A DNA stretch of 64,000 bases from assembly GCF_988243305.1 (NCBI RefSeq), contig NZ_OZ547136.1. One strand, 5' to 3'. Numbering within the stretch: the first letter of the stretch is position 1; each line of letters opens with the position of its first letter. The notes under the pieces are model-generated. The model saw only the letters and a program-made list of their open reading frames with translations. It did not search any database and was not told where the DNA came from. Positions 2,634 to 63,105 of the stretch are shown here, piece by piece. Both the position numbers and the translations under genes were made by a program.

Positions 2634-3404
2634 CCAGAATAACCAACTTTATTTTTATGCGGTCTCACCGCACCCCGTGATGTCGCCGGGAAGCCCCGGT
2701 AAAAAATAATTAGCATTAGAATAGTTGCGATAAGCTGCAATAGGCAGAGCCCCTTTTTTGGATTTAATAAGTCCTTACAAATAGAAGGGGTTCTTTACAC
2801 TTATCTAAGATTTTTCCTAAATCGACGCAACTTTACTCGTCACTACACTCACATACAACGGAGGGGGGCTGCGATTTTCAATAATGTGTGATGCAGATCA
2901 CACAAAACGCTCAATTACTTAACATAAATGTATAAGTCATACTTTTGTTTTGGGTGTATTTCAATCTGTTAAAAAGTTTTTCGCTACGATAGCAAGTAAA
3001 AATGAAACAGGAATAATCGAAATGGGATGTTGCGCACAGTTAAAATAACTCACCGTAAATAATCATCTGCTATAAATAATTGCTTTAATGCAATACCCGA
3101 TAAGCTATTTTTAAACAGACACTTACCGCACAACAAACTAATTAAATACAAAGAAAGGCAACAATCAACTTAATGTTAATAAAATGTTTTACATATATTA
3201 ACCACTTGTTTGATATGGAGAATCAGTACATTATTTTCTTATAATTACAGTTGAAATCATATGATCACCGAGAGTGATTGATTAATTGTATTTACTAATA
3301 ATCACACTAATATTTACCTGTTTGACTGAGTTGGGATTGCGTCGATTCTCCATTAGGAGTAAAGCTTTAATGTCACCTGAAGTTCACAGAATAAGGAACA
3401 GGTT
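2634..3404 (-). promoter_or_regulatory. flhDC upstream control region (long AT-rich leader/promoter)
   Basis: ~770 bp AT-rich non-coding DNA between flhD start and divergent uspC; position matches the known flhDC regulatory region; individual sites not resolved. Confidence 0.5.
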
Positions 3405-20703: not shown

Positions 20704-21456
20704 TTATTGCAGCAGAAACTTCTCGAGGAACTGGCGGGTGCGAGGCTGCTCGGGATCTGCAAATAACGCTTTTGCGGCCCCCTGCTCGACTATCCGCCCC
20801 TGGTCCATAAAGATCGCCCGGTCCGCAACATCCCGGGCAAAGCTCATTTCGTGCGTCACAATCACCATCGTGCGCTTTTCCTGCGCCAGCTGGCGGATGG
20901 TGTTCAGGACTTCGCCCACCAGCTCTGGATCCAGCGCCGACGTTGGCTCGTCAAACAAAATCACTTCAGGACGCATAGCCAGCGCTCGCGCAATCGCGAC
21001 ACGCTGCTGTTGACCGCCAGACAAACGACGTGGATAGCTGGTTTCTTTACCTGCCAGCCCAACTTTCGCCAACAGCTCGCGAGCGCGCACCGTGGCCTCT
21101 TCTTTCGGTTCGCCTTTGACGATCACCGGCCCTTCAATAATGTTCTCCAGCACCGTACGATGCGGAAACAAATTAAAGTTCTGGAAGACAAACCCGACGT
21201 GCTGACGCAACTGGCGAATCAGCGATTTTTGCTGACTTAATGAACGTGCAGTATCAATAGTGATATCGCCAACGGTGATGGTTCCCGCTTCCGGTTGTTC
21301 CAGCAGATTTATGCTGCGTAGCAACGTGGTTTTGCCGGAACCACTCGGACCGATAATTGCCACTACTTCGCCAGGCTTTACCTCGAGGTCGATACCGTGC
21401 AGCACCGTCTGACCGTGAAATTTTTTCACCAGGTTCTTAACTTCAATGGCACTCAT
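20704..21456 (-). CDS. tcyN: L-cystine ABC transporter ATP-binding protein
   Basis: 250-aa ABC ATPase, Walker A GPSGSGKTT, signature LSGGQQQR. Confidence 0.9.
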   Translation of the reverse strand: MSAIEVKNLVKKFHGQTVLHGIDLEVKPGEVVAIIGPSGSGKTTLLRSINLLEQPEAGTITVGDITIDTARSLSQQKSLIRQLRQHVGFVFQNFNLFPHRTVLENIIEGPVIVKGEPKEEATVRARELLAKVGLAGKETSYPRRLSGGQQQRVAIARALAMRPEVILFDEPTSALDPELVGEVLNTIRQLAQEKRTMVIVTHEMSFARDVADRAIFMDQGRIVEQGAAKALFADPEQPRTRQFLEKFLLQ

Positions 21457-22121
21457 TTTGGTTCTCTCTCCTGGCGATTAAGTTGATTCTCAAAATGGTT
21501 CTGCAACGTCGATAACACTGTCGCCATGATCCAGTAGATGAGCGAAGCCGCCAGATACATGGTGAACACCTCCAGCGTACGCGAGGTAATCAACTGCGCC
21601 TGACGGAACAGCTCCGGCACCTGGATTGTCGCGGCCAGCGACGTATCTTTTACCAGGCTGATAAAGCTGTTCGACAGCGGCGGCAACGCCACCCGCGCCG
21701 CCTGTGGCAAAATCGCGCGACGCATGGTCTGCCATGGCGTCATACCAATACTGGCAGCAGCTTCCCACTGACCTTTATCAATAGAAGAAATGGCGGCGCG
21801 CAGCGTTTCGGCAGCATAGGCGGCAGTGTTTAGCGACAGACCAATCATTGCTGACGGAATGGGATCTAGTTCGATGCCAAACTGCGGCAGGCCGTAATAG
21901 ATCATAAACAGTTGTGCGATGAGTGGCGTACCACGAAAAATAGAGATATAAAAACGCGCCAGCCAGCGCACGGGCCAGATTGGTGAAAGGCGCATCAGCG
22001 CGAGAATAAACCCTAGCAGTAAGCCAAAAAACATGCCGCCGATACTGAGTTGCAGCGTATACCCAGCCCCTTTCAGCAGGAACGGCAAGGAATCAATAAC
22101 CAGTTGTATACTTTCTTGCAT
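21453..22121 (-). CDS. tcyL: L-cystine ABC transporter permease
   Basis: 222-aa polar amino-acid ABC permease; 4-nt overlap with tcyN. Confidence 0.9.
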   Translation of the reverse strand: MQESIQLVIDSLPFLLKGAGYTLQLSIGGMFFGLLLGFILALMRLSPIWPVRWLARFYISIFRGTPLIAQLFMIYYGLPQFGIELDPIPSAMIGLSLNTAAYAAETLRAAISSIDKGQWEAAASIGMTPWQTMRRAILPQAARVALPPLSNSFISLVKDTSLAATIQVPELFRQAQLITSRTLEVFTMYLAASLIYWIMATVLSTLQNHFENQLNRQEREPK

Positions 22122-22135
22122 GAGCGTTTCCGGAG

Positions 22136-23288
<1,153 letters not shown>

Positions 23289-23489
23289 GACAGGATTTCC
23301 TTGTGTATGTGGGGTGCTCTGTGGCGCTCTGAGATGTGATTTGATTGAGGGTTTTACAGCGCGGACATTTAACTTCCAGATAACTGAAGCTGGCTCGTGC
23401 CAGTAGCTTGTTACAATGTCGGCACCGTATGTTTCGATACATGGCCGCATAACCTCCTGCTTTGTTGTTGATATCTTTATCACTCAATC

Positions 23490-24776: not shown

Positions 24777-26831
24777 TTACGCGTTATTCACTTCCACCAC
24801 GATACTGTCAATCAGTACCGGGTAAGTCGCATTTTTAGTGATATCGGTCACGCGCAACTTGTCTGCCGTAAACGTGCCGACCGGAGACTGCGACAGCATG
24901 AATGGTGTCCCGTCCTTACCATCAATGACCGGCGTCACCTCAATACTGTTGTTACCGGCAAAACGGAAGCCCAGCGTATGCCATTCGTTATTAAATGCGC
25001 CGAATGACCCCAGCTTCGTGTTCTGCGCCGTGTTTCCTTTGTGATACATCACGTTAAGGTCTGTGGCATCGCTCTGTACGTAGAACGATGCCAGCAGGTT
25101 ATGACCGGCATTTCCTTCCAGAGTAACCCCTTGCGGCAGGGCAGAAACCGGCCAGTACAGCGCCAGTGCGTACTGATTAGCCGTAAGCGCGCCATCGAGT
25201 TTAAAACGACAACTGACAAGACCACCTTTACCCAGCAGGTCCGCACCATTACCAGCATCATGCTCAAGGTACCAGGGGGCTCTTCCTGTTTCCTTGGTCA
25301 GTTTCATTGCCTTACCCCCGCTGGCTCCGGCATCATCCACGATTTGAGCCTTGCCACCTCCGGCAGCCCAACCCTGTGGTGTCAACCGTCCTTCAGACTC
25401 AGATGCCCGGTAAGCAAATAGCGTACTCATCGTCGTGGTGTCTGCGGGTGGCGTGGACGGTTTTGATGGTGTATCAGGTGACGGCTTCTCATCCGGTGGT
25501 GTCACGGTCTGCCCGCGCATCAGTTCAGCCGTGCGCCCTGCATGGAGCATAATAGCTGAGGCCAGACGGTCTGAAATGACGCCCCTGCGTGCCCATGAGC
25601 TGAAATGGCTGTCACGCTGTGTCGAAACAAAACTGCCCTGGGTTCGGGATGCTGCACCGTAATACCCGACAGCCACAATATCCGGGTCTTCCGCCGGAGC
25701 ATTCGTTGGCGTGCTCTGTCCATTCTCATCCGTCAGGAACGGTACAAAGAAAATTTTCTGTGCTTCCTTGCCTTTGTAGCCACCGTATACTGCCTCATAT
25801 TTATCGGTGCCAGCGTTTTTCCAGTAATACGTGGTATCACCGCAAATCCACGGCACCGTGGTGGCATTTCCACTCACGCACTGCGCAGCAAGCGGAGCCA
25901 GGTCAGTTCTGAACTGCTGAACCATGGCCGTGAATAAACTATTATGCTGCTGGCTTCCTGAGGCAAGGTCTGCCTCTCCCTGCATCCAGACCACAGCCAG
26001 AAGTTTGTTTTTCGGGTTTTTCGCCAGCGCGACTTTGGTGCGGCTTACCAGGTCCTGATACAGAGGTTTACCGGCCCCCCAGCGTGAAGAATCAGCGGAA
26101 GCACCGCTGGCCTCACTGAATGAGCCGTCGGCTCCAGTGGTGAATGCTGACCCGCCACGACAACAGGGCACCAGAAGTATCCCGGCATTCTGTGGGATAT
26201 AGGGAAGCAGTTTTTTGGCAATATGCAACCCCTGACCGACAGTCCCGTACTGGCCTTTTGCCAGATCAGCTTTCGGGTGGTTTATCCCGCTCATATCCTG
26301 AACATCATGCAGGCAGTGGTCTGCCGGAATGATGTCGTTGTATGTACACGACGTACCGTTGGGCGTTACCGCACTGCGGCGTGCCAGTTGCTTAATGCGT
26401 GGGTCCGGGCGGTCAAACGAATCCGGTAACGGCAGCCCCTCGCCGTAGGCCATGCCATTTGACTGACCCGCGAGAATGACAACAAAGTAATATTCCGGCT
26501 CTGAACTGCTGCCATTCGTGCTACCGGAAGGCCCGGCGTTATCCGGTGCATTCCAGTCGGAGGGCGTGAGCGTTCCGGCCACGTCAGATGTGATTGGAAT
26601 GATGCCAGTCACGCCTGAACTGGTGATTTCTGCACTGGGATTACCGGATACCGGCATTACCCATAATGGCTCTTTCGTGCTGAAGCGGATCACGCAGTCT
26701 GCGAAGGTGATCCCCCCTTTATTACCCGAAGGGCGGAAAGGGCTTTCAATAAATGCCACCGTGCCACCGGCAACCTTGACTGAAAACTCTCCGGGCATGG
26801 CGGAGAGCATTTTCCACTTGGAGTCTGACAT
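24777..26831 (-). CDS. prophage-encoded SGNH/SASA-family sialate O-acetylesterase-like protein (NanS-p-like) with C-terminal lectin-like domain
   Basis: 684-aa ORF; catalytic block YYFVVILAGQSNGMAYGEGLPLPD, VPCCRGGSAFT, AVVWMQGEADL, RDSHFS resembling E. coli NanS; Pro/Thr linker then ~190-aa beta-rich C-terminal domain. Confidence 0.75.
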   Translation of the reverse strand: MSDSKWKMLSAMPGEFSVKVAGGTVAFIESPFRPSGNKGGITFADCVIRFSTKEPLWVMPVSGNPSAEITSSGVTGIIPITSDVAGTLTPSDWNAPDNAGPSGSTNGSSSEPEYYFVVILAGQSNGMAYGEGLPLPDSFDRPDPRIKQLARRSAVTPNGTSCTYNDIIPADHCLHDVQDMSGINHPKADLAKGQYGTVGQGLHIAKKLLPYIPQNAGILLVPCCRGGSAFTTGADGSFSEASGASADSSRWGAGKPLYQDLVSRTKVALAKNPKNKLLAVVWMQGEADLASGSQQHNSLFTAMVQQFRTDLAPLAAQCVSGNATTVPWICGDTTYYWKNAGTDKYEAVYGGYKGKEAQKIFFVPFLTDENGQSTPTNAPAEDPDIVAVGYYGAASRTQGSFVSTQRDSHFSSWARRGVISDRLASAIMLHAGRTAELMRGQTVTPPDEKPSPDTPSKPSTPPADTTTMSTLFAYRASESEGRLTPQGWAAGGGKAQIVDDAGASGGKAMKLTKETGRAPWYLEHDAGNGADLLGKGGLVSCRFKLDGALTANQYALALYWPVSALPQGVTLEGNAGHNLLASFYVQSDATDLNVMYHKGNTAQNTKLGSFGAFNNEWHTLGFRFAGNNSIEVTPVIDGKDGTPFMLSQSPVGTFTADKLRVTDITKNATYPVLIDSIVVEVNNA

Positions 26832-26900: not shown

Positions 26901-26937
26901 GAAATTCAAAAAAGCGTCACGGTACTTTTGGTGACGG
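26901..26937 (-). terminator. rho-independent terminator at gin 3' end
   Basis: Minus strand reads CCGTCACC-AAAAGTACC-GTGACG followed by CTTTTTTGAATTT; stem includes gin stop codon. Confidence 0.45.
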
Positions 26938-27489
26938 AGCTGGTGAGGCAGGAAAATAACGATAAAGGGTGGAAAGGCCAATATCAAATATCAGTGCGAT
27001 TTGTTTACGGGACTCGCCATTAGCCAGCAAACGGGCGATTTGCTCCCGCTCTTTCTCTGTCAGTTTCTGAGGTCTGCCGCCATGACGCCCCTGAGCACGG
27101 GCAGCAGCAAGACCCGCGCGTGTACGTTCAATAATGAGTTCCCGCTCCATTTCCGCCAGCGCGCCCATTATATGGAAAAAGAAACGTCCCATGGGAGTGG
27201 ATGTATCAATATTGTCCGTAATGCTGCGGAAGTTAACGCCGCGTTGCCGGAGTTCTTCTGTTAAAAGGACAAGGTGCTGCATACTGCGTCCAAGGCGATC
27301 CAGTTTCCAGACCAGCAGGGTATCCCCTGGCCGGAGTCGCTTTAATGCGCGTTTAAGTCCGGGACGCTCCCTTGTCTTACCGCTTATTCTATCTTCGAAA
27401 AACAGCTCACATCCTGCACATTCCAGCGCATTTCTTTGTAGCGCCGTATTCTGGTCATTTGTTGACACCCTGATATACCCAATCAGCAT
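26917..27489 (-). CDS. gin: Gin/Hin/Pin-family serine DNA invertase
   Basis: MLIGYIRVSTNDQNTALQRNALECAGCELFFEDRISGKTRERPGLKRALKRL... closely matches Mu Gin. Confidence 0.85.
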   Translation of the reverse strand: MLIGYIRVSTNDQNTALQRNALECAGCELFFEDRISGKTRERPGLKRALKRLRPGDTLLVWKLDRLGRSMQHLVLLTEELRQRGVNFRSITDNIDTSTPMGRFFFHIMGALAEMERELIIERTRAGLAAARAQGRHGGRPQKLTEKEREQIARLLANGESRKQIALIFDIGLSTLYRYFPASPAPSPKVP

Positions 27490-44928: not shown

Positions 44929-46501
44929 CCAGCATCCCCTTCATTTCCGCAGCAAACATGGCATCACTGAGCAGCGTCATCAGGCGGGAATCATCCATTT
45001 CACGATAAAGGGCAGGCAGGTCTGCCAGCGCATCCGCCAGCCCCCGCGTTCTGATGGCATCAATGACCGGCTCCAGTACCGGGTCGATGGCCTCCTGTAA
45101 GCGGCGGGCAGGCACCGCGTCCCCCATATCATCCAGTTCATCACGCGGCGTGCTTTTCGCTTCCGGCAGTCTGGCTGACAGCGCCGTCTGCTCTGTTTTT
45201 TCCTGTTTTTCCGGTGGTGTTTCCCTGTCGGTCTGAGCCGGTTCATTGCCACTCTGACGGACACGGAATATGGCTTCACCGGGCGTGGGCTGCGGAATAC
45301 CGGTCTGCTCCCGTATCCAGGGATCAGAAATATCCATCCCCGTACTGAGCTGCATCACCGCACTGGTGATTTTGGTGATATCACCTGGTTCTTTGGTCTG
45401 GAAGCAGATACGTGGCAGACGGCGGATATCAATAGTGTGCGTGGTGTTCAGGGCGTACAGCGGATACACCAGATCGCGGTTCAGGGTTGCAGCCAGCTGC
45501 CGTAAATCAGAATCCCTGATTTCCCGGCGCACCTCGTTATGCACCTCACCCAGCGAGCGCGCGCCTTTGTCTCCGGCTTCCGTGGTCAGCGTGCCGCCGA
45601 GTATTGCTTTGGAGATGGAACGCTCCCCCCACGAAATCATGGTTTCAAATGGATCGGCCTGACCGTTTGCTGCCGCCTGAAATTCCAGCGACATCCCGGC
45701 CGGGATGATCCCGCCTGTACGTCGCCCGATATCCATCACCGCCCGCATCAGGGCGCTTTTCTGCTCCGGTGTTGCCCCGGACGGGTATTTCCCGACCTTC
45801 ATCGGCAGTCCGTACACCTCCAGAAATTCGGCCAGATCGCGCACGGAATAGTTTTTGAAAATGAACGGCCAGATAAGCGTCCTGACAAGCCCCGTTGCGC
45901 CACCGTAACCGGTCCGTGAACGTGACTGATGCACTATCCAGCCAAAAGGCTGAAACGCCACCCCGGCATGGCTGCCGTCACGCAGCCGCAGTTCGCTCAA
46001 ATCATCCGGGTTAAGGCAGAAATGCCCGCTGTCACGCCAGCGGATGGCGCGGATGATGTGCATTTTACCGAGCATCCCGTGCTCAATTTCCATGCAGGAA
46101 TAGCCCTTCAGGATGGCATCCGTGGCGTCAAACAGCATGGCATCAAACCAGTCTGCGGAATGCAGATATTCGTCGAGCATTTCCGCGTCCTTTTTCTCAT
46201 TCGCGCTGGCGTTCGGTGGCGGCTCAATACTCCATGGCACCCCCTGAATGGCAAGACGTCGCTTGCCCAGCTCCGCAAAAAGGTGGGTGTCCTTTTCTTC
46301 AATATCAGCGGCCAGATCGGACTGGGCAATCAGATCGCCACGTTCAGCCCCGCGAAGGCACTGCGCCGCCCGGTTCGGGGTGATACCCGAAGCCGGATGT
46401 TCAATATAACGGCTGGCAATCTGCGGAATATCCAGCGCGGCACTCTGCATCTCCGGGTCAAAGGAGAAAGGTTTTCCGTCAGTATCAATGATGCGTCCCA
46501 C
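44912..46501 (-). CDS. portal protein (Mu H-like)
   Basis: 529-aa ORF directly downstream of large terminase. Confidence 0.7.
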   Translation of the reverse strand: MGRIIDTDGKPFSFDPEMQSAALDIPQIASRYIEHPASGITPNRAAQCLRGAERGDLIAQSDLAADIEEKDTHLFAELGKRRLAIQGVPWSIEPPPNASANEKKDAEMLDEYLHSADWFDAMLFDATDAILKGYSCMEIEHGMLGKMHIIRAIRWRDSGHFCLNPDDLSELRLRDGSHAGVAFQPFGWIVHQSRSRTGYGGATGLVRTLIWPFIFKNYSVRDLAEFLEVYGLPMKVGKYPSGATPEQKSALMRAVMDIGRRTGGIIPAGMSLEFQAAANGQADPFETMISWGERSISKAILGGTLTTEAGDKGARSLGEVHNEVRREIRDSDLRQLAATLNRDLVYPLYALNTTHTIDIRRLPRICFQTKEPGDITKITSAVMQLSTGMDISDPWIREQTGIPQPTPGEAIFRVRQSGNEPAQTDRETPPEKQEKTEQTALSARLPEAKSTPRDELDDMGDAVPARRLQEAIDPVLEPVIDAIRTRGLADALADLPALYREMDDSRLMTLLSDAMFAAEMKGMLDDTGD

Positions 46502-48168
46502 TACCAGCCCCCCCGATCAAATTCATGATATGCCTCATCGTCATCACGATAACCGCCCTCCATTGCCCGCGACCGCTCCGGTAGCGCCTGACAGGCTGAT
46601 TCATCCAGGATGAAGCCCTCCATGTATGACGCCCGGTTTGCCATACAGAGCGCCACGGCAAAATCACCATGGCGGCGGGCGTTCGCAGCCGTTGCGTTCT
46701 GGTCCTTCGTGCGCCCCTTGTCGATTTGCGGGATACCATTCACTACCTTCACATGGCGCAAATCATCAAGCGTGGTCTGATGGCGGGCGACGAGGATATT
46801 CTGATCTTCAAACTCGGCTTTCAGTTTTGGCATCCACTCGCCGTACCACTTCGGCGACAACATCACGCAGTCGATGATATCCGGGCCAAAGGCCAGCAGT
46901 GCGGCCTCTGCCAGATAGCCGCCGTTACCGGTGGCGTCGAACGCCGCACCGACCAGCGCCGGAACGCGGGTCAGGATGTACATCATCACCTGTTCCTGCT
47001 GGGCATACGGCAGGTTGCGCAGCTCCACGCGAAACACCTCGCGCTTTGCCAGGGATTCGGTGATTTCCAGCAGCACAAAGCAGGACAGGTCACCGGTGCG
47101 GGCAAAGTCTTCCCCGAAGCTGAAGCGGGAACGGGGATTTAATTTCTCTAAAAGCGGTTTTAAATGTTCTTCACACCAGGTTAAAACTTCCGATTCACGC
47201 AGCCATGCGGCACGGCTGATGAAGTTGTCCGGGGCTTCAAACGTCAGAATCGGGATGTCGCGGATCATCGCCATTTCAATAAGCGCGTGGGGGATATAGG
47301 CACCGCCGGATTTTTTCGGGATACAGCCGTATTCCTCGTCGGCATCCTCACGGGTCGGGGCGTTTTTGTAGAGATCATCACGCCATTTCTGCTCGCTTTC
47401 CGGTGACCATTCCTGATCGGTGACGTAACAGATACGACGGTACAGCCCGTCCGCAATGGCATCATCCAGGGTTATGCGGTGGACGCTGTAATCCTTGCGC
47501 CCCTCGCGGGCTTCCTGAATGTACTGATTAAACAGATTATCGACGCCGTTATGCGTGGAGATAATACGCACGCGCGCGCCCCACATAGTGAGCGCCATTG
47601 CCGCCTTGAGAAGCTCATCCAGTGACTCGTGGAACGCGGCTTCATCAATCACCACATCCCCCTGAAGGCCGCGCAGGTTTGACGGACGGGAAGACAATGC
47701 CTGAATTTTGAATCCACTGTTCGGAAAGCGGATCATGTAGGTCAAAATTTCTTCTTTTTTATCCCGATCCCAGAATGTCTGCTCATACACATCAGCATCT
47801 GCCAGCTGGTTAAAGGCACGGGAGAACAGCGCGCAGGCAGAAATATATTCCAGCGCCATCTCCTGCTTTGATCCCACATAAAACACATTGCGGCCACCAC
47901 GACGCTTCGGTTTTGCAGCAGTAATGACGTTACGCCCGGCTTCCGCCCAGGTAAGACCGGTGCGGCGGGATTTCTCCGCGATGCAGACCTGACTTTCATC
48001 TGCAAACCAGCGGGCCTGATAATCCAGAAACACCGGCATATCACCGGGCAAATCAAGGCTGTCCGGCACATCCACGCCCAGCAGGGCTTTTTCACCTGAC
48101 AGATCAATTTTGCGGGGAGGCGTCATTTGCATCAGTGAAGGCGACGTTTCTCTGGCTTTGTTCATCAT
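46501..48168 (-). CDS. terminase large subunit
   Basis: 555-aa ORF; size and position upstream of portal. Confidence 0.75.
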   Translation of the reverse strand: MMNKARETSPSLMQMTPPRKIDLSGEKALLGVDVPDSLDLPGDMPVFLDYQARWFADESQVCIAEKSRRTGLTWAEAGRNVITAAKPKRRGGRNVFYVGSKQEMALEYISACALFSRAFNQLADADVYEQTFWDRDKKEEILTYMIRFPNSGFKIQALSSRPSNLRGLQGDVVIDEAAFHESLDELLKAAMALTMWGARVRIISTHNGVDNLFNQYIQEAREGRKDYSVHRITLDDAIADGLYRRICYVTDQEWSPESEQKWRDDLYKNAPTREDADEEYGCIPKKSGGAYIPHALIEMAMIRDIPILTFEAPDNFISRAAWLRESEVLTWCEEHLKPLLEKLNPRSRFSFGEDFARTGDLSCFVLLEITESLAKREVFRVELRNLPYAQQEQVMMYILTRVPALVGAAFDATGNGGYLAEAALLAFGPDIIDCVMLSPKWYGEWMPKLKAEFEDQNILVARHQTTLDDLRHVKVVNGIPQIDKGRTKDQNATAANARRHGDFAVALCMANRASYMEGFILDESACQALPERSRAMEGGYRDDDEAYHEFDRGGW

Positions 48169-48413
48169 GCTTTACCTGTCAGAATGCTTTTGATTCGGGA
48201 CTCAAGCTCTTCAGTCATCACGTCCACGCCGCTCAACTCATCAGTGGCAGCCTCTGCCAGCAGCGAATGCAGTTGTTCCAGGGATATTTCCCCGGCAATG
48301 CTGAGTTCAGTCAACTCACGACATACCTTTATGGTTTCAGGAGGTAACTGTGTTGCAAGACTGAATGCTTTCTGATGGGCACTGCTCATCAGTGAGCGGT
48401 TATCTGTTGCCAT
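48165..48413 (-). CDS. hypothetical protein, paralogue of C-terminal segment of the upstream gp27-like protein
   Basis: C-terminus AATDELSGVDVMTEELESRIKSILTGKA aligns with AVTDELRGVDGMSEQIEFRIRQMLLGKA of ORF 48424..49005. Confidence 0.4.
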   Translation of the reverse strand: MATDNRSLMSSAHQKAFSLATQLPPETIKVCRELTELSIAGEISLEQLHSLLAEAATDELSGVDVMTEELESRIKSILTGKA

Positions 48414-48423
48414 GATTCACCTC

Positions 48424-49005
48424 CTACGCCTTACCCAGCAGCATCTGCCTGATACGGAATTCGATCTGCTCGCTCATGCCATCCACGCCGCGCAACTCAT
48501 CGGTGACCGCATTCGCCATCTCTTCAGCAAATGCGGCCCGGATTTCTTTTTCACGCTTAATGCTGCGCTCGGCGGCACTTTCTGCACGCTGTGCCGACAG
48601 GAGGATGTCCTTAATAAGGCGCATATCCACATCGCTGTCGCTGTTCAGGGATTCGGTGGCGGCACGCAGACGGCGGTACATCAGGGCACGGGACATCTCC
48701 AGAATCAGTGCCGTGGTTTCACCGGTCGGCTTATCCCCCAGTTCGGCCATCATGGCTTTTGTCTGCTCGCGTAAATCACGCAGATTACGGGCAATCAGCT
48801 CATTACGGGAGGCTTCCCGGCTGATGGCCGCCGGTGAGAGCTGCTGCTCTTCCGGCAGACCTGCTTCACGGATCAGACGGTTGATTTCCTCGCGGATCTG
48901 GACCTGCGTCAGACGTTTTTCACGCAGCATTTCCAGCAGCGGCTTACGGATGCTGTCGGGGAGCAAATCCACCTTGCGTACACGGCCACGCGTCGGCTTA
49001 TCCAT
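48424..49005 (-). CDS. terminase small subunit-like protein (Mu D/gp27 position)
   Basis: 193-aa ORF upstream of large terminase; synteny. Confidence 0.55.
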   Translation of the reverse strand: MDKPTRGRVRKVDLLPDSIRKPLLEMLREKRLTQVQIREEINRLIREAGLPEEQQLSPAAISREASRNELIARNLRDLREQTKAMMAELGDKPTGETTALILEMSRALMYRRLRAATESLNSDSDVDMRLIKDILLSAQRAESAAERSIKREKEIRAAFAEEMANAVTDELRGVDGMSEQIEFRIRQMLLGKA

Positions 49006-49007
49006 CG

Positions 49008-49298
49008 TTACCCCCTTGCGCGTGGTTTCTTCACACCCGGAACAGTGGCACGACCTTCCGCCACATCCTGACCCCGGCCGGTCAGTTCAGCGATGAAATA
49101 ACCGTTAACAAGCGTGCGCTTACGCACCAGTCCCTGCTCAGCAAGCCAGGCAATGTGGGTGTGAACGGTGTCGCGGGACACGCGGTGGCCGTAATCATCC
49201 AGGCAGTCCTGAAGCACGGATTCGCCCAGTTCGCCGTTGTAATCCGCCAGCGACCGCAGAATGACAAGACGCTGATCTTCAGTAATGAAATCACTCAT
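49008..49298 (-). CDS. hypothetical protein (Mu gp26 position)
   Basis: 96-aa ORF; synteny only. Confidence 0.4.
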   Translation of the reverse strand: MSDFITEDQRLVILRSLADYNGELGESVLQDCLDDYGHRVSRDTVHTHIAWLAEQGLVRKRTLVNGYFIAELTGRGQDVAEGRATVPGVKKPRARG

Positions 49299-49602
49299 TG
49301 TGTTTTTTCCTTACAGCCTGCTCCAGCAGCAGTTCGTTCTGGTGGGAGACGGATTTCAGGGTGGCATTGGTGGCCTTAAGCTCACCGCGCAGGGTGGTGA
49401 TTTCGATATTGAGTCTGTTCACCTCCTGCTGCGTGGGCAGGCCGGAAATCCGGCTCTCCACCCGCTCAACCCGGTCGGAGAGTTTTTCAAAGGCCTCGCG
49501 GGGGACAAAGGTTTTGCGCATCAGCGCCATAAAGATCCCCCCGGCCGTGGCTGTTGCCGACAGGATCGGCACGACATAATCTTTAACGATGCTGACCCAC
49601 AT
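49291..49602 (-). CDS. hypothetical membrane protein (single TM helix; Mu gp25 position)
   Basis: N-terminal hydrophobic segment VVPILSATATAGGIFMALM then coiled coil. Confidence 0.4.
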   Translation of the reverse strand: MWVSIVKDYVVPILSATATAGGIFMALMRKTFVPREAFEKLSDRVERVESRISGLPTQQEVNRLNIEITTLRGELKATNATLKSVSHQNELLLEQAVRKKHNE

Positions 49603-49810
49603 GACCGGCCTCCATGATGCTCTGGCAGTTCACACAACGGATGGCATCCGGCACGGCAACCAGACGGGCGGCCGGAATGTCACCCCCGCAGTCTGCGCAT
49701 ACACGCCTGCCCGGAGTCTCCTCCACCCGGCACTTACGTGTCAGCCGGTCACAAAGGGCGCGTTCTGTTGCCCGCTCCACGACTGCCTGAGCACAATCTG
49801 AATCATCCAT
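49583..49810 (-). CDS. TraR/DksA-family C4 zinc-finger protein
   Basis: Start at MDDSDCAQAVVER within longer ORF; CADCGGDIPAARLVAVPDAIRCVNCQ four-Cys motif. Confidence 0.6.
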   Translation of the reverse strand: MDDSDCAQAVVERATERALCDRLTRKCRVEETPGRRVCADCGGDIPAARLVAVPDAIRCVNCQSIMEAGHVGQHR

Positions 49811-49820
49811 ACCTTTTTCC

Positions 49821-50192
49821 TTACTTCGTCTTTCCTGCCGGAACAGCAGTCGTTCCGGCCATATCAGTAAATTCATGCTGTCGCTGTGCCTCCAGACGGC
49901 GGATGCTGGCCTTGTCCACGTTGCAGTTCTTAATCACCGCCAGCAGTTGCAGGTTGTAAGTGACCGATGCGCCAAACGTGAACGGCTGCGGCACAGGAGG
50001 AACCAGACAGTCAGCCAGCCATTCAGCGGGGATCGGCACCGGCTTCACCGGCACGTATTTCACAGACGGCCCGCCGCACCCGGTCAGCCACATCATCAGG
50101 CACAGGAACAGAGGCCGCAGGCACCGTTGCCAGCGACCGGCGGACAATGCTCTGCTGTTCCTCGCTGTGCTGCATGTTCTGCTGTTTTTCAT
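49821..50192 (-). CDS. putative outer-membrane spanin lipoprotein (o-spanin)
   Basis: Lipobox LTGC after hydrophobic stretch, Pro-rich periplasmic part; begins inside i-spanin frame. Confidence 0.45.
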   Translation of the reverse strand: MKNSRTCSTARNSRALSAGRWQRCLRPLFLCLMMWLTGCGGPSVKYVPVKPVPIPAEWLADCLVPPVPQPFTFGASVTYNLQLLAVIKNCNVDKASIRRLEAQRQHEFTDMAGTTAVPAGKTK

Positions 50193-50523
50193 TCGTGGCC
50201 GCCTTACTGATTTGTGAAATGAGTTGCAGGGTACGTTGCTGGTTTGCCAGCACCAGACGGGCTTCGTCCCGTTCACGCACAAGCACATGATTATTGTCTT
50301 CAAGACGCTGTGTCTTCTGGTGCATTCCCCATACCACGGCAGCCAGCACGCTCATCACCCCCAGCGCCGCCATACACCCTCCGGCAATCAGGGCCGGTAA
50401 GGGATTATTCACCGCAGCCACAGCACACCCCGGAGCACCACAACGACACACAACAGCGCAATCATGAGTGGTCGCCAGAAGCGGTTCAGACTTTCGGCAA
50501 ATCGTAGCGACATAACCATTCAT
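50023..50523 (-). CDS. putative inner-membrane spanin (i-spanin)
   Basis: TM segment ALIAGGCMAALGVMSVLAAVVWGM followed by coiled coil; immediately downstream of endolysin; start uncertain. Confidence 0.4.
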   Translation of the reverse strand: MNGYVATICRKSEPLLATTHDCAVVCRCGAPGCAVAAVNNPLPALIAGGCMAALGVMSVLAAVVWGMHQKTQRLEDNNHVLVRERDEARLVLANQQRTLQLISQISKAATNEKQQNMQHSEEQQSIVRRSLATVPAASVPVPDDVADRVRRAVCEIRAGEAGADPR

Positions 50524-50986
50524 CCGCCGAACGGCGGGCCTCAAGACCGGGGAGTTTTACCCCCTTTGAATAAATCCAGCGGATATACTGCTTACAGGAC
50601 GCGGGCATCTGCCCGGCATTGATCAGGCGCAGAAGCGTGGAGTTGCGAAAGTTCGTTTCACCGGCCCAGAAGATCCACGAAGCCAGCGCCACCGTCTGAC
50701 CACGGGTAAGCGGCACCTGAACATGACGATCGATAGCCGCAAAGGCCCATTTCATGTCCTTTTCCAGCAGTTCCAGACATTCTTCATCGGTTTTTGTCAT
50801 ACCCGGTTTCACATCCGGGCCGGTATGGCCGTGGCAGATGGTGGGGGTGCCGGTGGGGTCGAGATACGTGGTGTTTTCTTTCCCTTCCCAGTAGCCGGTG
50901 TAGTGCGTGGCAATAGTGAACGTCCCGGCTCCGGCCAGAACAAGGGCAATCAGCTTTTTACGCAGTGGCGCGGGGAGTTTTGGCAT
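50486..50986 (-). CDS. endolysin (GH24 lysozyme) with N-terminal signal-anchor-release-like segment
   Basis: E...D...T catalytic pattern (YWEGKENTTYLDPTGTPTICHGHTG) after hydrophobic Gly/Ala-rich N-terminus KLIALVLAGAGTFTIA. Confidence 0.8.
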   Translation of the reverse strand: MPKLPAPLRKKLIALVLAGAGTFTIATHYTGYWEGKENTTYLDPTGTPTICHGHTGPDVKPGMTKTDEECLELLEKDMKWAFAAIDRHVQVPLTRGQTVALASWIFWAGETNFRNSTLLRLINAGQMPASCKQYIRWIYSKGVKLPGLEARRSADEWLCRYDLPKV

Positions 50987-51057
50987 TGTTACGCTGTCTC
51001 ATGGTGTTCTCTGAGCCAGCGTAACCGTGGGAAAAAGGGGGCAGGATTTGCGGAATA

Positions 51058-51480
51058 TCAGAAAAGCCGGGGCTGCGTGCGCTCCTGATGCAGGCGACGC
51101 TGGTTGCGGATAACGGAGTAAATCTGCGTCTCTGACATCTGGTAATGGCGGCGCAGGGTTTCAATTTTTTCGCCCTGGCTCCAGCGGGAAAAAATTTCAT
51201 TATTGCGCAGTTCGGTGAAAAGGGATTCACCGACCGGGAGATAATAACCACGCCCGCCCATGTACCCGGCCTGTGCGGCTGCAACCTTACGGGCAAGCAT
51301 TCCCGCCTGAGCAGGTTCAATCCCCTGACGGTGCAGTTCAGCACTGATCACATCAACCAGGTCCCGCAGCGTGCCGGGCCAGTTCTTTTTCAGCTCATCA
51401 TCAGGAATATCATCCAGACGGTCAATCAGCGCGTGCAGCTGTTCGCTGTCACCAAACATGCTCATCTGTGTTTCAGCCAT
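51058..51480 (-). CDS. Mor/C-family transcriptional activator
   Basis: 140-aa ORF with C-terminal HTH LRRHYQMSETQIYSVIRNQRR resembling Mu Mor/C. Confidence 0.7.
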   Translation of the reverse strand: MAETQMSMFGDSEQLHALIDRLDDIPDDELKKNWPGTLRDLVDVISAELHRQGIEPAQAGMLARKVAAAQAGYMGGRGYYLPVGESLFTELRNNEIFSRWSQGEKIETLRRHYQMSETQIYSVIRNQRRLHQERTQPRLF

Positions 51481-51550
51481 ACCCGCCTCCGGTCATCATT
51501 ACACAGGGCAAGTTTAAAATAAAAATCCCGCGCTGTGGCGGGATTTGGGG

Positions 51551-52063
51551 TTAAAAGGGGGAGGATTCTTCATACAGCCTGCAAACGCGCTCATAACTCA
51601 TCACTGTACGCGCTGACATCCCCAGCACATCCAGCATCTTGCGGCGGTGCCAGCGTTTGAGACGCTCCAGCACATCAGAGGCCAGCGCGGGGTGTTGTTC
51701 CAGCCACTGCCAGTTAGCCACACCTTCGCCGCCGTTCTGAGCGACCGTCTGCGATTTCACCCAGCGGTTAAGGGCTGTTTCCCCGCCATCAGAGATAAAG
51801 CCCTGCCGGTGCATCACCTTCCAGATGGCGCGAATTTTGGCGGTCACCGTACCCGGTTTTAAGGCCCGGTTAACCGGCTTCTGACGCACTTTAAAACCGC
51901 GTTTTTTGAAAACATCCAGCACGCGGGATAACTCATCCGGTGACATATCCCGGCAACTGGGTTTACCGGTGGCTGCCAGTAGTACGGATGTGTAGGTCTC
52001 ATGGTCAAGCTGTAGATCGCGTTTTGCGACATGTATTAAGGTAATCAGGGAAGCGCGATTCAT
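51551..52063 (-). CDS. GemA/gp16-like protein
   Basis: N-terminus MNRASLITLIHVAKRDLQLDHETYTSVLLAATGKPSCRDMSPDELSRVL resembles Mu-like gp16 (GemA) family as I remember it. Confidence 0.6.
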   Translation of the reverse strand: MNRASLITLIHVAKRDLQLDHETYTSVLLAATGKPSCRDMSPDELSRVLDVFKKRGFKVRQKPVNRALKPGTVTAKIRAIWKVMHRQGFISDGGETALNRWVKSQTVAQNGGEGVANWQWLEQHPALASDVLERLKRWHRRKMLDVLGMSARTVMSYERVCRLYEESSPF

Positions 52064-58142: not shown

Positions 58143-60233
58143 TCAGGCCAGCGGATCACTTTCTTTTAATTTCGCTTCGAGCAACTGCAATCCCCGCTGG
58201 AAATTACGCTCGTATTCTTCATCAGGTTCATCGTCAGCGACCGGTTGCTGAACGATCACCGTATTACCCACAGGGCGGTATATATTTTCCAGCCACGGCT
58301 CCTGTGGCTTGTGCTCCAGCACGTTGACAATCTCATCCTCGGCATCACGGATTTTTTCCTCTGCGCGTTTACGCATGCCTTTAAGGCGCTGCTGCTGTTT
58401 GTGGTATTCCGCGCTGACCGGGAAGGCTTCGCGTTTATTGCCGTCCCATACCGCCTCGCAAATCACGCTGCCATCCAGGCGACGTACGGTAATTCGTTCG
58501 GCATCATGAATGTCATAGCTGATAAGCACCTTACGACCATGCTCGTCACGCAGCTCGGGCGCGTAGTAAATATTATTCAGCCAGCGTATTTCACAGCGTC
58601 TTACAGGGCGCTCCACCATCGGCCGGAACATATCCCGCAGTTCAACATCGGACAGCCATTCAATTTCCGTGTCCTCTTCCGCCAGGCGTTTTTTTCTGAA
58701 CTCCGCCGGGCTGTAATGTTTACCGTTCGGCTTCATGGGTAATTCATCGTGCGGCCGGTTGTTGTACCACTCAACACCATCACGAATGGCATCAATCAGT
58801 TCAGCCCAGGACGGTGAATCACGCATCGCTGACTGCTGCCGGGCGTTCAGCCGTTTGCCCTGTTGCAGGGCAGTAAATGCCGAGCGTAAATCGCGGTTGG
58901 TTTTGCGTAACGTCTCGCGATCTGCACCTTTCCCGAAATAGGTGCGGTATTTACGGGCTATGCGCATCGGTAATGTGCGGTTAAGCCGTTCGATAATGCC
59001 TCGTCCCTGCGGATTACCGGCAATCCCGGTCGGGTGATTAATCCCCAGTCGCGGCAGTATCCCCACAACCTCCTTATCCAGGATGTCGGCGGTTTCCCCG
59101 GAGCCGTTATCCGAGTAATACAGAAACGGTTTGCCGTGATGGCGAATGCCGTGCTGTATGGCACCGGCTACGGCGAAAACATTTTCAGCCAGGTCAAGGC
59201 TCCAGCCCACCACAAAGCGCGTGCCACCGTCGATAACAAAGGTCACTTCCGGTGCAAATGGCCGACCGTGAACCGGGTGTGCGCATTTCAGCTTCATGCC
59301 GTGACCGTCACCAATCCAGACATAATTCACCGGCATTTTTGACCAGTCGCGGCGCGTGAATCCCTCAAGCTGGCGGTATTCACTGCCGGTCACCCGGCCT
59401 TTTTGTTTCACCACTTCCGGCAGTTTCTTCATTGCGCGGCGAATGGTGTCATAAGACGGCATGATATCGAGCATATAAGGCTCATCAGCGTGCCGGTGCT
59501 GCCATTCAGCGACAAAATCCTCGTAAGCCTCGGTCATTGGTCGGCCGTTTGACTGGCGATACTGCGCCAGAAATTCGGGCAGCCAGTTAATATCTTCGGC
59601 TTTTATTTCCTGGCGCTTACCCGGTGCCAGTAAAAGCAGGCGTTCAGCGGCGTTCTGCGCCTTGTTAAAGGCCGCAATCCAGCGTTTCAGCGTGATTTCA
59701 CTTAACGCGCGGCTGTTTCCCTTTTTGGCGTTCGCCGTCTCAACCATTGCCACAATGCGCTCGTCCAGCTGCGAACGTGCCAGGTTGTCAACGATAAACC
59801 GGATAGCCTTCGCACAGCTGAAACCAGGTTGTTGCGCGACTTTCAGAACTTCGCTGACGATCGCGATTCGTGCATCAGCCACCTGGCGCTGGTTTTCAGT
59901 CAGGGCATTAAGGCGTTCGACCATCAGTTGTGGTGATCCGCGATATGCCTCCACCGCATCAACCACGGCAGGCGAGCGTCTGGCCTTTGTCACCACTGGA
60001 GCCGGTGATTCATCGACTTTTTGAGTCATCAGTTGCAGGGCGTAGCGTTCACGTAATGCCTGCTGCGTCACTTCAGGTAAACAGTCGATGCTGTATTCAG
60101 TTGCTTTAGAGCCTGAGCGACGACGGGAACAACAGCTTTTCCCTTGTACGTAACGTTGTAATGCCTGGCGAATACCTTTTGTTGTAGCAGGCATTCCGGG
60201 CGCACCAATCAGTTCTTTTGCAATGACATACAT
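58143..60233 (-). CDS. A: Mu-type DDE transposase A
   Basis: 696-aa ORF directly downstream of ner; N-terminal DNA-binding domain and central catalytic region of Mu A size. Confidence 0.85.
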   Translation of the reverse strand: MYVIAKELIGAPGMPATTKGIRQALQRYVQGKSCCSRRRSGSKATEYSIDCLPEVTQQALRERYALQLMTQKVDESPAPVVTKARRSPAVVDAVEAYRGSPQLMVERLNALTENQRQVADARIAIVSEVLKVAQQPGFSCAKAIRFIVDNLARSQLDERIVAMVETANAKKGNSRALSEITLKRWIAAFNKAQNAAERLLLLAPGKRQEIKAEDINWLPEFLAQYRQSNGRPMTEAYEDFVAEWQHRHADEPYMLDIMPSYDTIRRAMKKLPEVVKQKGRVTGSEYRQLEGFTRRDWSKMPVNYVWIGDGHGMKLKCAHPVHGRPFAPEVTFVIDGGTRFVVGWSLDLAENVFAVAGAIQHGIRHHGKPFLYYSDNGSGETADILDKEVVGILPRLGINHPTGIAGNPQGRGIIERLNRTLPMRIARKYRTYFGKGADRETLRKTNRDLRSAFTALQQGKRLNARQQSAMRDSPSWAELIDAIRDGVEWYNNRPHDELPMKPNGKHYSPAEFRKKRLAEEDTEIEWLSDVELRDMFRPMVERPVRRCEIRWLNNIYYAPELRDEHGRKVLISYDIHDAERITVRRLDGSVICEAVWDGNKREAFPVSAEYHKQQQRLKGMRKRAEEKIRDAEDEIVNVLEHKPQEPWLENIYRPVGNTVIVQQPVADDEPDEEYERNFQRGLQLLEAKLKESDPLA

Positions 60234-61321: not shown

Positions 61322-63105
<1,784 letters not shown>

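Follow-up and report, generated by a model that had tools for sequence, protein, structure and literature searches.

Within a 64,000-nucleotide (nt) stretch of contig NZ_OZ547136.1 (NCBI RefSeq assembly GCF_988243305.1), hereafter called the window, we analyzed a lysis gene cassette carried by a Mu-like prophage of ~39 kb. The cassette interval lies on the minus strand at positions 49821 to 50986, bounded exactly by the stop codon of an o-spanin open reading frame (ORF) and the ATG of an endolysin gene. It comprises genes for a 166-amino-acid (aa) signal-anchor-release (SAR) muramidase of glycoside hydrolase family 24 (GH24; 50486 to 50986), a 132-aa Rz/LysB-like i-spanin (50023 to 50421), and a 123-aa Rz1/LysC-like lipoprotein precursor, the o-spanin (49821 to 50192). 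A previously unannotated micro-ORF of 34 codons (50409 to 50513), a candidate fifth cassette gene, sits between the endolysin and i-spanin genes. Farther downstream on the same strand, a 103-aa DUF2730 protein (49291 to 49602) is a homolog of the Mu releasin gp25. Taken together, the gene content and order indicate that a transposable Mu-like prophage very probably uses this late-operon cassette for lysis in the way that has been shown for Mu.

Endolysin and spanin genes

The endolysin matched the Pfam family Phage_lysozyme (PF00959; E = 6.8e-36; residues 33 to 154) and the endolysin family phrog_7 (E = 3.6e-51). Its catalytic triad is E34-X8-D43-X5-T49, and all three residues were invariant across 18 diverse homologs in an alignment spanning 37 to 83% identity. 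An alternative placement of the catalytic Glu at E37, offered by MAFFT, was rejected because the ungapped HMMER alignment to the R endolysin of phage 21 (R21) and the 18-sequence alignment both favored E34.

The N terminus of the protein reads MPKLPAPLRKK followed by LIALVLAGAGTFTIATHYTGY, and codons 1 to 33 (50888 to 50986, minus strand) cover the predicted cytoplasmic tail (residues 1 to 11) and the putative SAR segment. Three parts can be distinguished: the 11-residue tail, which ends in R9, K10, and K11; a hydrophobic core from L12 to A26 (50909 to 50953); and the residues THYTGYW, which lead up to the catalytic Glu. The SAR segment is 52% Gly, Ala, Ser, or Thr, and its mean Kyte-Doolittle hydropathy of 1.39 over 19 residues falls under the usual threshold for a transmembrane (TM) segment. 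Its insertion energy on the Hessa scale, calculated as a simple sum, was +2 to +3 kcal/mol. On the same scale this value lies between those of phage 21 R (+0.2 to +0.8 kcal/mol) and Mu gp22 (+4.5 to +7.5 kcal/mol), both of which are SAR proteins by experiment (PMC9239132). The RKK and AGAGT motifs of the N terminus were kept in the Escherichia coli and Citrobacter lineages.

Identity to Mu gp22 was 40% over residues 1 to 155, and the best sequence match in the Protein Data Bank was full-length phage 21 R (3HDE; E = 4.3e-26), with an alignment from residue 5 to residue 161 that includes the SAR region. An AlphaFold2 model built on the 18-sequence alignment (predicted local distance difference test [pLDDT] score, 94; predicted TM score [pTM], 0.88) shows helices 6 to 17 and 22 to 34 packed onto the catalytic body. 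The top Foldseek matches of the model were full-length RrrD (4ZPU) and R21 (3HDE), with TM scores of 0.86 to 0.88 over 163 of 166 columns, against a score of just 0.61 for the SAR-less, inactive structure 3HDF. The model thus portrays an N-terminal segment that is retained as part of the folded active enzyme. A sequence-only reading of the locus had proposed a SAR-type GH24 endolysin on the basis of the hydrophobic, Gly/Ala-rich N terminus; the assignment is supported by these comparisons, in which the closest structures by sequence and by fold are full-length enzymes and the alignments take in the N-terminal segment. Since the SAR segment contains no Cys, activation by refolding of the R21 type is expected, and disulfide-caged activation of the P1 Lyz type was dropped from consideration.

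The i-spanin matched phrog_214 (Rz-like spanin; E = 5.3e-30) and aligned from end to end with Mu gp23, with which it shares 25% identity and the C-terminal motif VP...ADR[VL]R...E.R. Its transmembrane domain (TMD) is N terminal and has a summed insertion energy near zero (+0.1 kcal/mol over 19 residues). In the AlphaFold model (pLDDT, 84), the TMD and a long helix span residues 5 to 96, followed by a Pro-rich linker and a second helix at residues 106 to 125. The E. coli and Citrobacter versions of the protein share ~47% identity. We placed its start at GTG 50421 (alternative, GTG 50412) because all five lineages in which the micro-ORF is found show the arrangement NTG-GCN...stop and because no coding constraint was seen farther upstream in this frame. 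The start codon is positioned 10 nt ahead of the micro-ORF stop in every lineage. Longer forms beginning at TTG 50544 or ATG 50523 were discarded, as the stretch upstream of 50421 is unconstrained (ratio of nonsynonymous to synonymous polymorphism [pN/pS], 3.2) and the frame is interrupted there by a stop codon in two of the lineages (L077 and L078). The start at ATG 50373, assigned by the NCBI Prokaryotic Genome Annotation Pipeline (PGAP) in strain DLI.5a, was likewise rejected, since it would cut the TMD.

The o-spanin matched the Pfam family LysC (PF23793; E = 8.8e-17) and phrog_3001 (E = 1.1e-40). By their E-values, the matches of the endolysin, i-spanin, and o-spanin are all far from what chance would give. 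Its lipobox, LTGC, is encoded at 50076 to 50087 and ends in Cys39, counted from ATG 50192. Both this ATG and the lipobox Cys were kept in all of the lineages examined, with LIGC, LSGC, and LTAC as lipobox variants, and the hydrophobic-region motif LCLPLLLT[GA]C is common to the o-spanin and Mu gp23.1. Residue +2 is Gly in the window and Gly or Ala across the lineages, not Asp, which predicts sorting of the lipoprotein to the outer membrane. The mature protein would have 85 aa, 10 of which (12%) are Pro. PGAP starts for lysC at 50039 and equivalent positions were set aside, because a protein begun there would lack the invariant lipobox Cys.

An o-spanin ORF with a lipobox that starts inside an i-spanin ORF with a TM segment and a coiled coil had been recognized from the sequence alone, and the LTGC motif, the phrog_214 and LysC matches, and the AlphaFold model bear this out. 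The pair had also been described as embedded, and this description needs correction. The o-spanin gene begins 170 nt before the i-spanin stop codon and runs 202 nt past it; by this extension the two genes are overlapped, as in P2 and Mu, rather than embedded as in lambda.

Public annotations of the equivalent interval (49821 to 50544) were uneven. At RefSeq loci L003 to L007, PGAP began lysC past the lipobox Cys, giving products of 72 to 80 aa. Three different i-spanin starts (116, 132, and 142 aa) were used at the same loci, one of the products being labeled "endopeptidase," and the micro-ORF was never called. RefSeq annotation of this cassette type includes a lysC start past the lipobox, inconsistent i-spanin starts, and a missed micro-ORF.

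Holin content and the DUF2730 protein

The absence of a classical holin near the endolysin, suggested earlier from the sequence, was found to extend to the whole prophage. We scanned the hydropathy of all prophage ORFs of at least 30 aa and compared the cassette proteins and the nonoverlapping TMD-bearing ORFs with Pfam and PHROG profiles; no member of a holin family was found in the ~39-kb prophage by these searches. As a positive control, non-Mu phage contigs that encode homologous SAR endolysins (40 to 46% identity) were treated in the same way, and a holin immediately upstream of the endolysin gene was detected. These control holins were pinholins of the P21-S type or other class II holins (PF04971, PF16082, and PF10746). 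The gene at the corresponding position in the window encodes a Mor/C-family transcription activator (51058 to 51480).

In phage Mu, there is no holin, and the releasin gp25 is needed to free the SAR endolysin gp22 (Chamblee et al. 2022, mBio, PMC9239132). Dependence of gp22 on gp25 is conferred by K6 and K7 beside the SAR segment, for which Arg is equally good (PMC9239132). Releasins have an N-out/C-in TMD with an RR or RK junction and are encoded no more than five genes downstream of the endolysin (PMC9239132). Mu gp25 does not behave as a holin, in that dinitrophenol causes no lethal triggering, and gp22 can also be freed by the pinholin of phage 21 (PMC9239132).

The DUF2730 protein of the window matched PF10805 (E = 1.2e-22) with 80.4 bits, against a cutoff of 24.9; residues 6 to 97 aligned with profile positions 3 to 101 of 102, TMD included. 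It shares 33% identity with Mu gp25 (E = 4e-17) and has the same layout, with an N-terminal TMD (~Y9 to M28), RK at the junction (...FMALM-RK-TFVPRE), and a helical cytoplasmic domain of 75 aa. The gene follows the order endolysin, micro-ORF, i-spanin, o-spanin, TraR-type zinc-finger protein, and DUF2730 protein. All of the releasin features that can be read from sequence are present: RKK beside the SAR core, an N-terminal TMD, the RK junction, and the position. In the E. coli and Citrobacter (L031/L044) lineages, the TMD, SIVKDY.VPILSATATAGGIFMALMRKTFVPREAF, is identical except for the one residue marked by a dot (V or A). The releasin TMD and the endolysin N terminus are the best-conserved parts of the cassette between these lineages. 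With its low hydrophobicity and high content of Ala, Thr, and Gly, the releasin TMD itself resembles a SAR segment.

Its homology marks the DUF2730 protein as a releasin and not as a holin. The ORF at 49291 to 49602 had been put forward as a small TM protein that might serve in place of the missing holin: the proposal that it supplies the membrane function of the cassette gains from the full-length DUF2730 match and the similarity to gp25, while a holin role does not follow from that homology. That the basic cluster next to the SAR segment and the releasin TMD are both so well conserved is independent evidence for the releasin model.

Micro-ORF between the endolysin and i-spanin genes

The micro-ORF (50409 to 50513, minus strand) would encode the single-TMD peptide MSLRFAESLNRFWRPLMIALLCVVVVLRGVLWLR, with 34 codons, or 36 codons if translation began at ATG 50519. 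It is read in the third frame, relative to the endolysin gene, whose 3' end it overlaps by its first 9 to 10 codons, and the i-spanin gene, whose ribosome-binding site and start are overlapped by its last 7 codons. The codons of its "LRG" motif read CTGCGGGG. A Shine-Dalgarno sequence for the micro-ORF itself was weak or absent, with nothing convincing in the expected place.

Substitution patterns point to coding in this frame. In 22 distinct sequences from two lineages, pN/pS was lowest in the micro-ORF frame (0.33), against values of 0.86 for the second frame and 3.2 for that of the i-spanin. With 16 distinct sequences from four lineages, the ratio of synonymous to nonsynonymous codon types was 26:26 in the micro-ORF frame; the two remaining frames gave 10:46 (Fisher P = 5e-4 versus the micro-ORF frame) and 9:47 (P = 2e-4). 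Amino acid changes in the peptide were all within small or hydrophobic residues, and its TMD is the most hydrophobic of the cassette. In the part that is free of overlaps (~15 codons), pN/pS was 0.64 (five lineages).

Homologs of the micro-ORF, at the same position and with the motif LRG[VI]L, were found in three further Mu-like lineages, L076, L077, and L078, each of which has the full cassette and an endolysin that is 68%, 55%, and 48% identical, respectively, to that of the window. Further homologs occur in Citrobacter braakii, which brings the number of lineages to five. The micro-ORF was not found in L080, L121, or Mu. A degenerate DNA pattern of the micro-ORF had matches only in C. braakii among species representatives, and in IMG/VR only in contigs already retrieved through the endolysin. 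An alignment scan of genome contigs yielded 30 pattern matches, none of which could be confirmed by tblastn. The peptide matched no Pfam, PHROG, or NCBIfam family, and the NCBIfam search gave nothing further for the lysis proteins. Among 15 billion sequences, the micro-ORF had been called as a protein once. Comparison by hhalign showed no similarity to Mu gp20, a TMD protein of 39 aa.

On this evidence, the micro-ORF is probably a translated gene, and it is the only element of possible novelty in the cassette. That it acts in lysis control is a tentative suggestion. It may be, though we regard this as doubtful, that a subclade comprising the E. coli "Sp18-like" prophages, Citrobacter, and the three further lineages carries a fifth cassette gene, whose single-TMD peptide of 34 to 37 aa is coupled between endolysin and i-spanin and times or modulates SAR release, either as a minimal pinholin-like depolarizer or as a partner or antagonist of the releasin. 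If the peptide did take part in lysis, it would be an extra component of Mu-type lysis in some lineages; if it controlled SAR release, it would be the smallest lysis-control protein known.

In phage P2, the membrane-protein gene lysA lies between the endolysin gene and lysB, which is the position of the micro-ORF in the window. P2 differs in having the holin Y and a soluble endolysin, and LysA is far larger and multispanning; no sequence similarity was detected between the micro-ORF and P2 LysA. The P2 likeness extends to the spanins, in that the o-spanin of the window is a member of Pfam LysC and the gene pair shows the overlapped architecture typical of lysB/lysC. A precedent for accessory membrane factors besides holin, endolysin, and spanin is Lcc6 of the Shewanella phage LambdaSo, a small single-TMD protein that is needed for lysis with a SAR endolysin (bioRxiv 10.1101/2024.01.23.576932). 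However, Lcc6 is encoded far from the lysis genes, acts with a pinholin, and is homologous to neither the micro-ORF nor the DUF2730 protein.

A programmed frameshift from the micro-ORF into the i-spanin was considered and rejected, as no slippery site is present and the product would have the wrong topology. In one contig (L030, ~2990 to 3080; IMG/VR UViG_2526164665_000023), an extra A in the AAA run before the endolysin stop codon fuses the endolysin in frame to the micro-ORF, with a product of 192 aa. This fusion might be genuine or might reflect an error in sequencing.

Lysis model and prophage context

The design of the cassette corresponds in most respects to that of Mu (gp22, gp23/gp23.1, gp24, and gp25; PMC9239132). 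Shared features are the gene order and late-operon position, the GH24 E-X8-D-X5-T triad, a Gly/Ala-rich SAR segment with adjacent basic residues, an overlapped i-spanin/o-spanin pair with the LCLPLLLT[GA]C signal motif, a zinc-finger protein between the spanins and the releasin, a DUF2730 protein whose N-terminal TMD has an RR/RK junction, and the lack of a holin. The differences are that the lysis proteins are only 25 to 40% identical to those of Mu, that the link from the SAR segment to the catalytic Glu is shorter in the window, and that its segment has 3 Gly, compared with 5 to 6 reported for gp22 (PMC9239132). In addition, the window has the 34-codon TMD ORF between the endolysin and i-spanin genes, whereas gp23 overlaps gp22 directly in Mu, and it lacks the gp18-gp20 membrane-protein region and the second Mor/C paralog. 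Phage 21 R and DLP12 RrrD (3HDE, 3HDF, and 4ZPU) are the best sequence and fold matches of the endolysin, N-terminal SAR region included, and their SAR segments also have no Cys. In contrast to the window, with the Mor/C gene upstream and the releasin gene downstream, they are freed by an S21-type pinholin encoded just upstream.

In the order of events that we infer, together with the tethering and the dependence on the releasin, the Mor/C activator would turn on the promoter ahead of the endolysin gene. The endolysin would then be exported by Sec and held inactive at the inner membrane, tethered by the uncleaved SAR segment and the cytoplasmic residues R9, K10, and K11. Without a holin or pinholin, the DUF2730 releasin, for which a single TMD in the N-out/C-in orientation and a helical domain in the cytoplasm are predicted, would help the SAR segment to leave the bilayer. 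The freed N terminus would fold back against the catalytic domain in the manner of phage 21 R, after which murein would be degraded, and the loss of murein would allow the i-spanin/o-spanin complex to disrupt the outer membrane.

Several observations weigh against this model. Identity to Mu is no more than 40% for gp22 and 33% for gp25. In the cytoplasmic domain of the DUF2730 protein, basic residues (14) outnumber acidic ones (11), which does not fit the "predominantly anionic" description given for gp25; by the same count, Mu gp25 has 11 basic and 12 acidic residues. A signal peptidase I site is formally possible in the endolysin between A26 and T27 (T24-I25-A26/T27). Finally, a conserved TMD micro-ORF that is absent from Mu could add a membrane-acting function, so that "holin-less" is not proven for this lineage.

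This last point leads to an alternative that we consider unlikely, in which the cassette is not truly holin-less and the micro-ORF peptide serves as a minimal pinholin-like or depolarizing trigger, or as an anti-releasin or antiholin-like regulator of SAR release, that sets the timing together with the releasin. The location of the micro-ORF within the cassette, where its overlaps with the endolysin stop and the i-spanin start couple it to both genes, is in keeping with such a role, as are its coding-type substitution pattern, its retention in five lineages whose endolysins are 48 to 83% identical to one another, and a TMD with the highest hydrophobicity in the cassette. The peptide matches no holin or other family, however, and with 34 aa it is, as far as we know, only some half as long as the smallest holins that are established. 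Its Shine-Dalgarno sequence is weak or absent, part of its conservation can be explained by the overlaps with the endolysin C terminus and the i-spanin ribosome-binding site and start, and Mu, L080, and L121 do without it. Two published results favor a trigger of this kind: the phage 21 pinholin is able to free Mu gp22 (PMC9239132), and the 65-aa Lcc6 of LambdaSo is a precedent for small single-TMD lysis accessories (bioRxiv 10.1101/2024.01.23.576932).

Two other readings appear highly improbable. SAR domains and signal peptides are hard to distinguish by sequence, and the endolysin N terminus, with three basic residues in its n-region, an h-region of 12 to 15 residues, and a possible cleavage site (T-I-A/T), might be an ordinary cleavable Sec signal peptide that yields a soluble periplasmic enzyme. 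Yet cleavage at residue 26 would, in the predicted model, strip helix 6 to 17 and most of helix 22 to 34, which pack against the catalytic domain just as they do in the R21 and RrrD structures of full length. The homologs Mu gp22 and phage 21 R are proven SAR proteins, a natural variant (L028) has Thr at position -1 of the possible cleavage site, and the paired releasin gene would be left without a role. It is just as hard to view the cassette as the decaying remnant of a cryptic prophage that is no longer lytic. Damage does occur among relatives, with a deletion in DLI.5a running from gp26 into the tail genes, a truncated DUF2730 gene in L008, and altered o-spanin ends in L021 and L022. In the window, however, no cassette ORF is disrupted, and the transposase, repressor, and structural genes are likewise intact; the relatives occupy differing chromosomal sites, which implies recent transposition, and the cassette genes are under purifying selection.

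The holin-less releasin design has been known since 2022, and the cassette of the window is a diverged and otherwise ordinary member of the Mu-type design. Its significance is that the releasin-based, holin-less design of Mu is conserved in a diverged and common E. coli prophage lineage, O157:H7 strains included. Near-identical DNA with the cassette intact was present in 230 of 5,426 complete E. coli genomes (~4%), many of them O157:H7, and also inside two Shiga toxin (Stx) phage records, where the annotation describes it as the insertion of a Mu-like phage. The survey of 34 active phages by Chamblee et al. did not include the Sp18-like prophage lineage (PMC9239132).

The surrounding genes follow the order known from Mu: GemA, Mor/C, endolysin, spanins, zinc-finger protein, DUF2730 protein, gp26, gp27, and large terminase. 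Identities of the syntenic proteins to Mu span 25% (gp23) to 72% (gp28). GemA (51551 to 52063, minus strand) is 47% identical to Mu GemA. The Mor/C-family activator directly upstream of the endolysin gene, also on the minus strand, matched the Pfam family Mor (PF08765; E = 6.7e-31) and is 40% identical to the late activator C of Mu and 28% identical to Mu Mor. It is the sole Mor-family gene in homologous RefSeq annotations and likely turns on the late (lysis) promoter. Between GemA and the single Mor/C gene, at 51523 to 51546 (minus strand), lies a strong terminator-like hairpin of 9 bp with a T-run behind it. In Mu and C. braakii, the C gene is followed by a hairpin that the window lineage has lost by deletion (50987 to 51057).

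Between the o-spanin and DUF2730 genes, in the position of Mu gp24, lies the gene for a TraR/DksA-type C4 zinc-finger protein of 75 aa (49583 to 49810, minus strand; PF01258, E = 2.2e-11). It gave a full-length match to TIGR02419 (65 bits; cutoff, 59.7) and matched phrog_54 (E = 7.5e-17). A longer ORF from 49876 was rejected in favor of the start at 49810, because the 75-aa form spans the TIGR02419 and phrog_54 profiles end to end. We know of no role for this protein in lysis. Downstream of the DUF2730 gene, the minus strand encodes homologs of gp26 (49008 to 49298; 63% identity to Mu gp26) and gp27 (48424 to 49005; 57% identity to Mu gp27) and the large terminase (46501 to 48168; 72% identity to Mu gp28). 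Between gp27 and the large terminase, the minus strand also carries an 82-aa ORF (48165 to 48413; phrog_30922) that has no counterpart in Mu. Over its final 30 residues, this ORF shares 53% identity with the C terminus of gp27, which suggests from sequence that the ORF is a partial duplication of gp27.

Other landmarks of the prophage are Mom (22551 to 23483) and transposase A (58143 to 60233), and the left end is near position 61497. The flanks consist of an ABC-transporter permease gene and a 270-aa ORF for a pyridoxal phosphate (PLP)-dependent enzyme (21453 to 22121 and 61484 to 62296). The latter ORF stops ~14 nt within the prophage end and appears to have been truncated when the prophage inserted. 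In strain TOE17, a prophage with 98.6% identity lies in the che operon instead (examined at L004, 35438 to 36699), and the different sites of the two prophages fit random transposition. Near the right end of the prophage, a 684-aa protein (24777 to 26831, minus strand) with SASA carbohydrate-esterase and DUF6645 domains is encoded next to a Gin-like invertase (26917 to 27489, minus strand) and may have a tail-fiber or cargo function.

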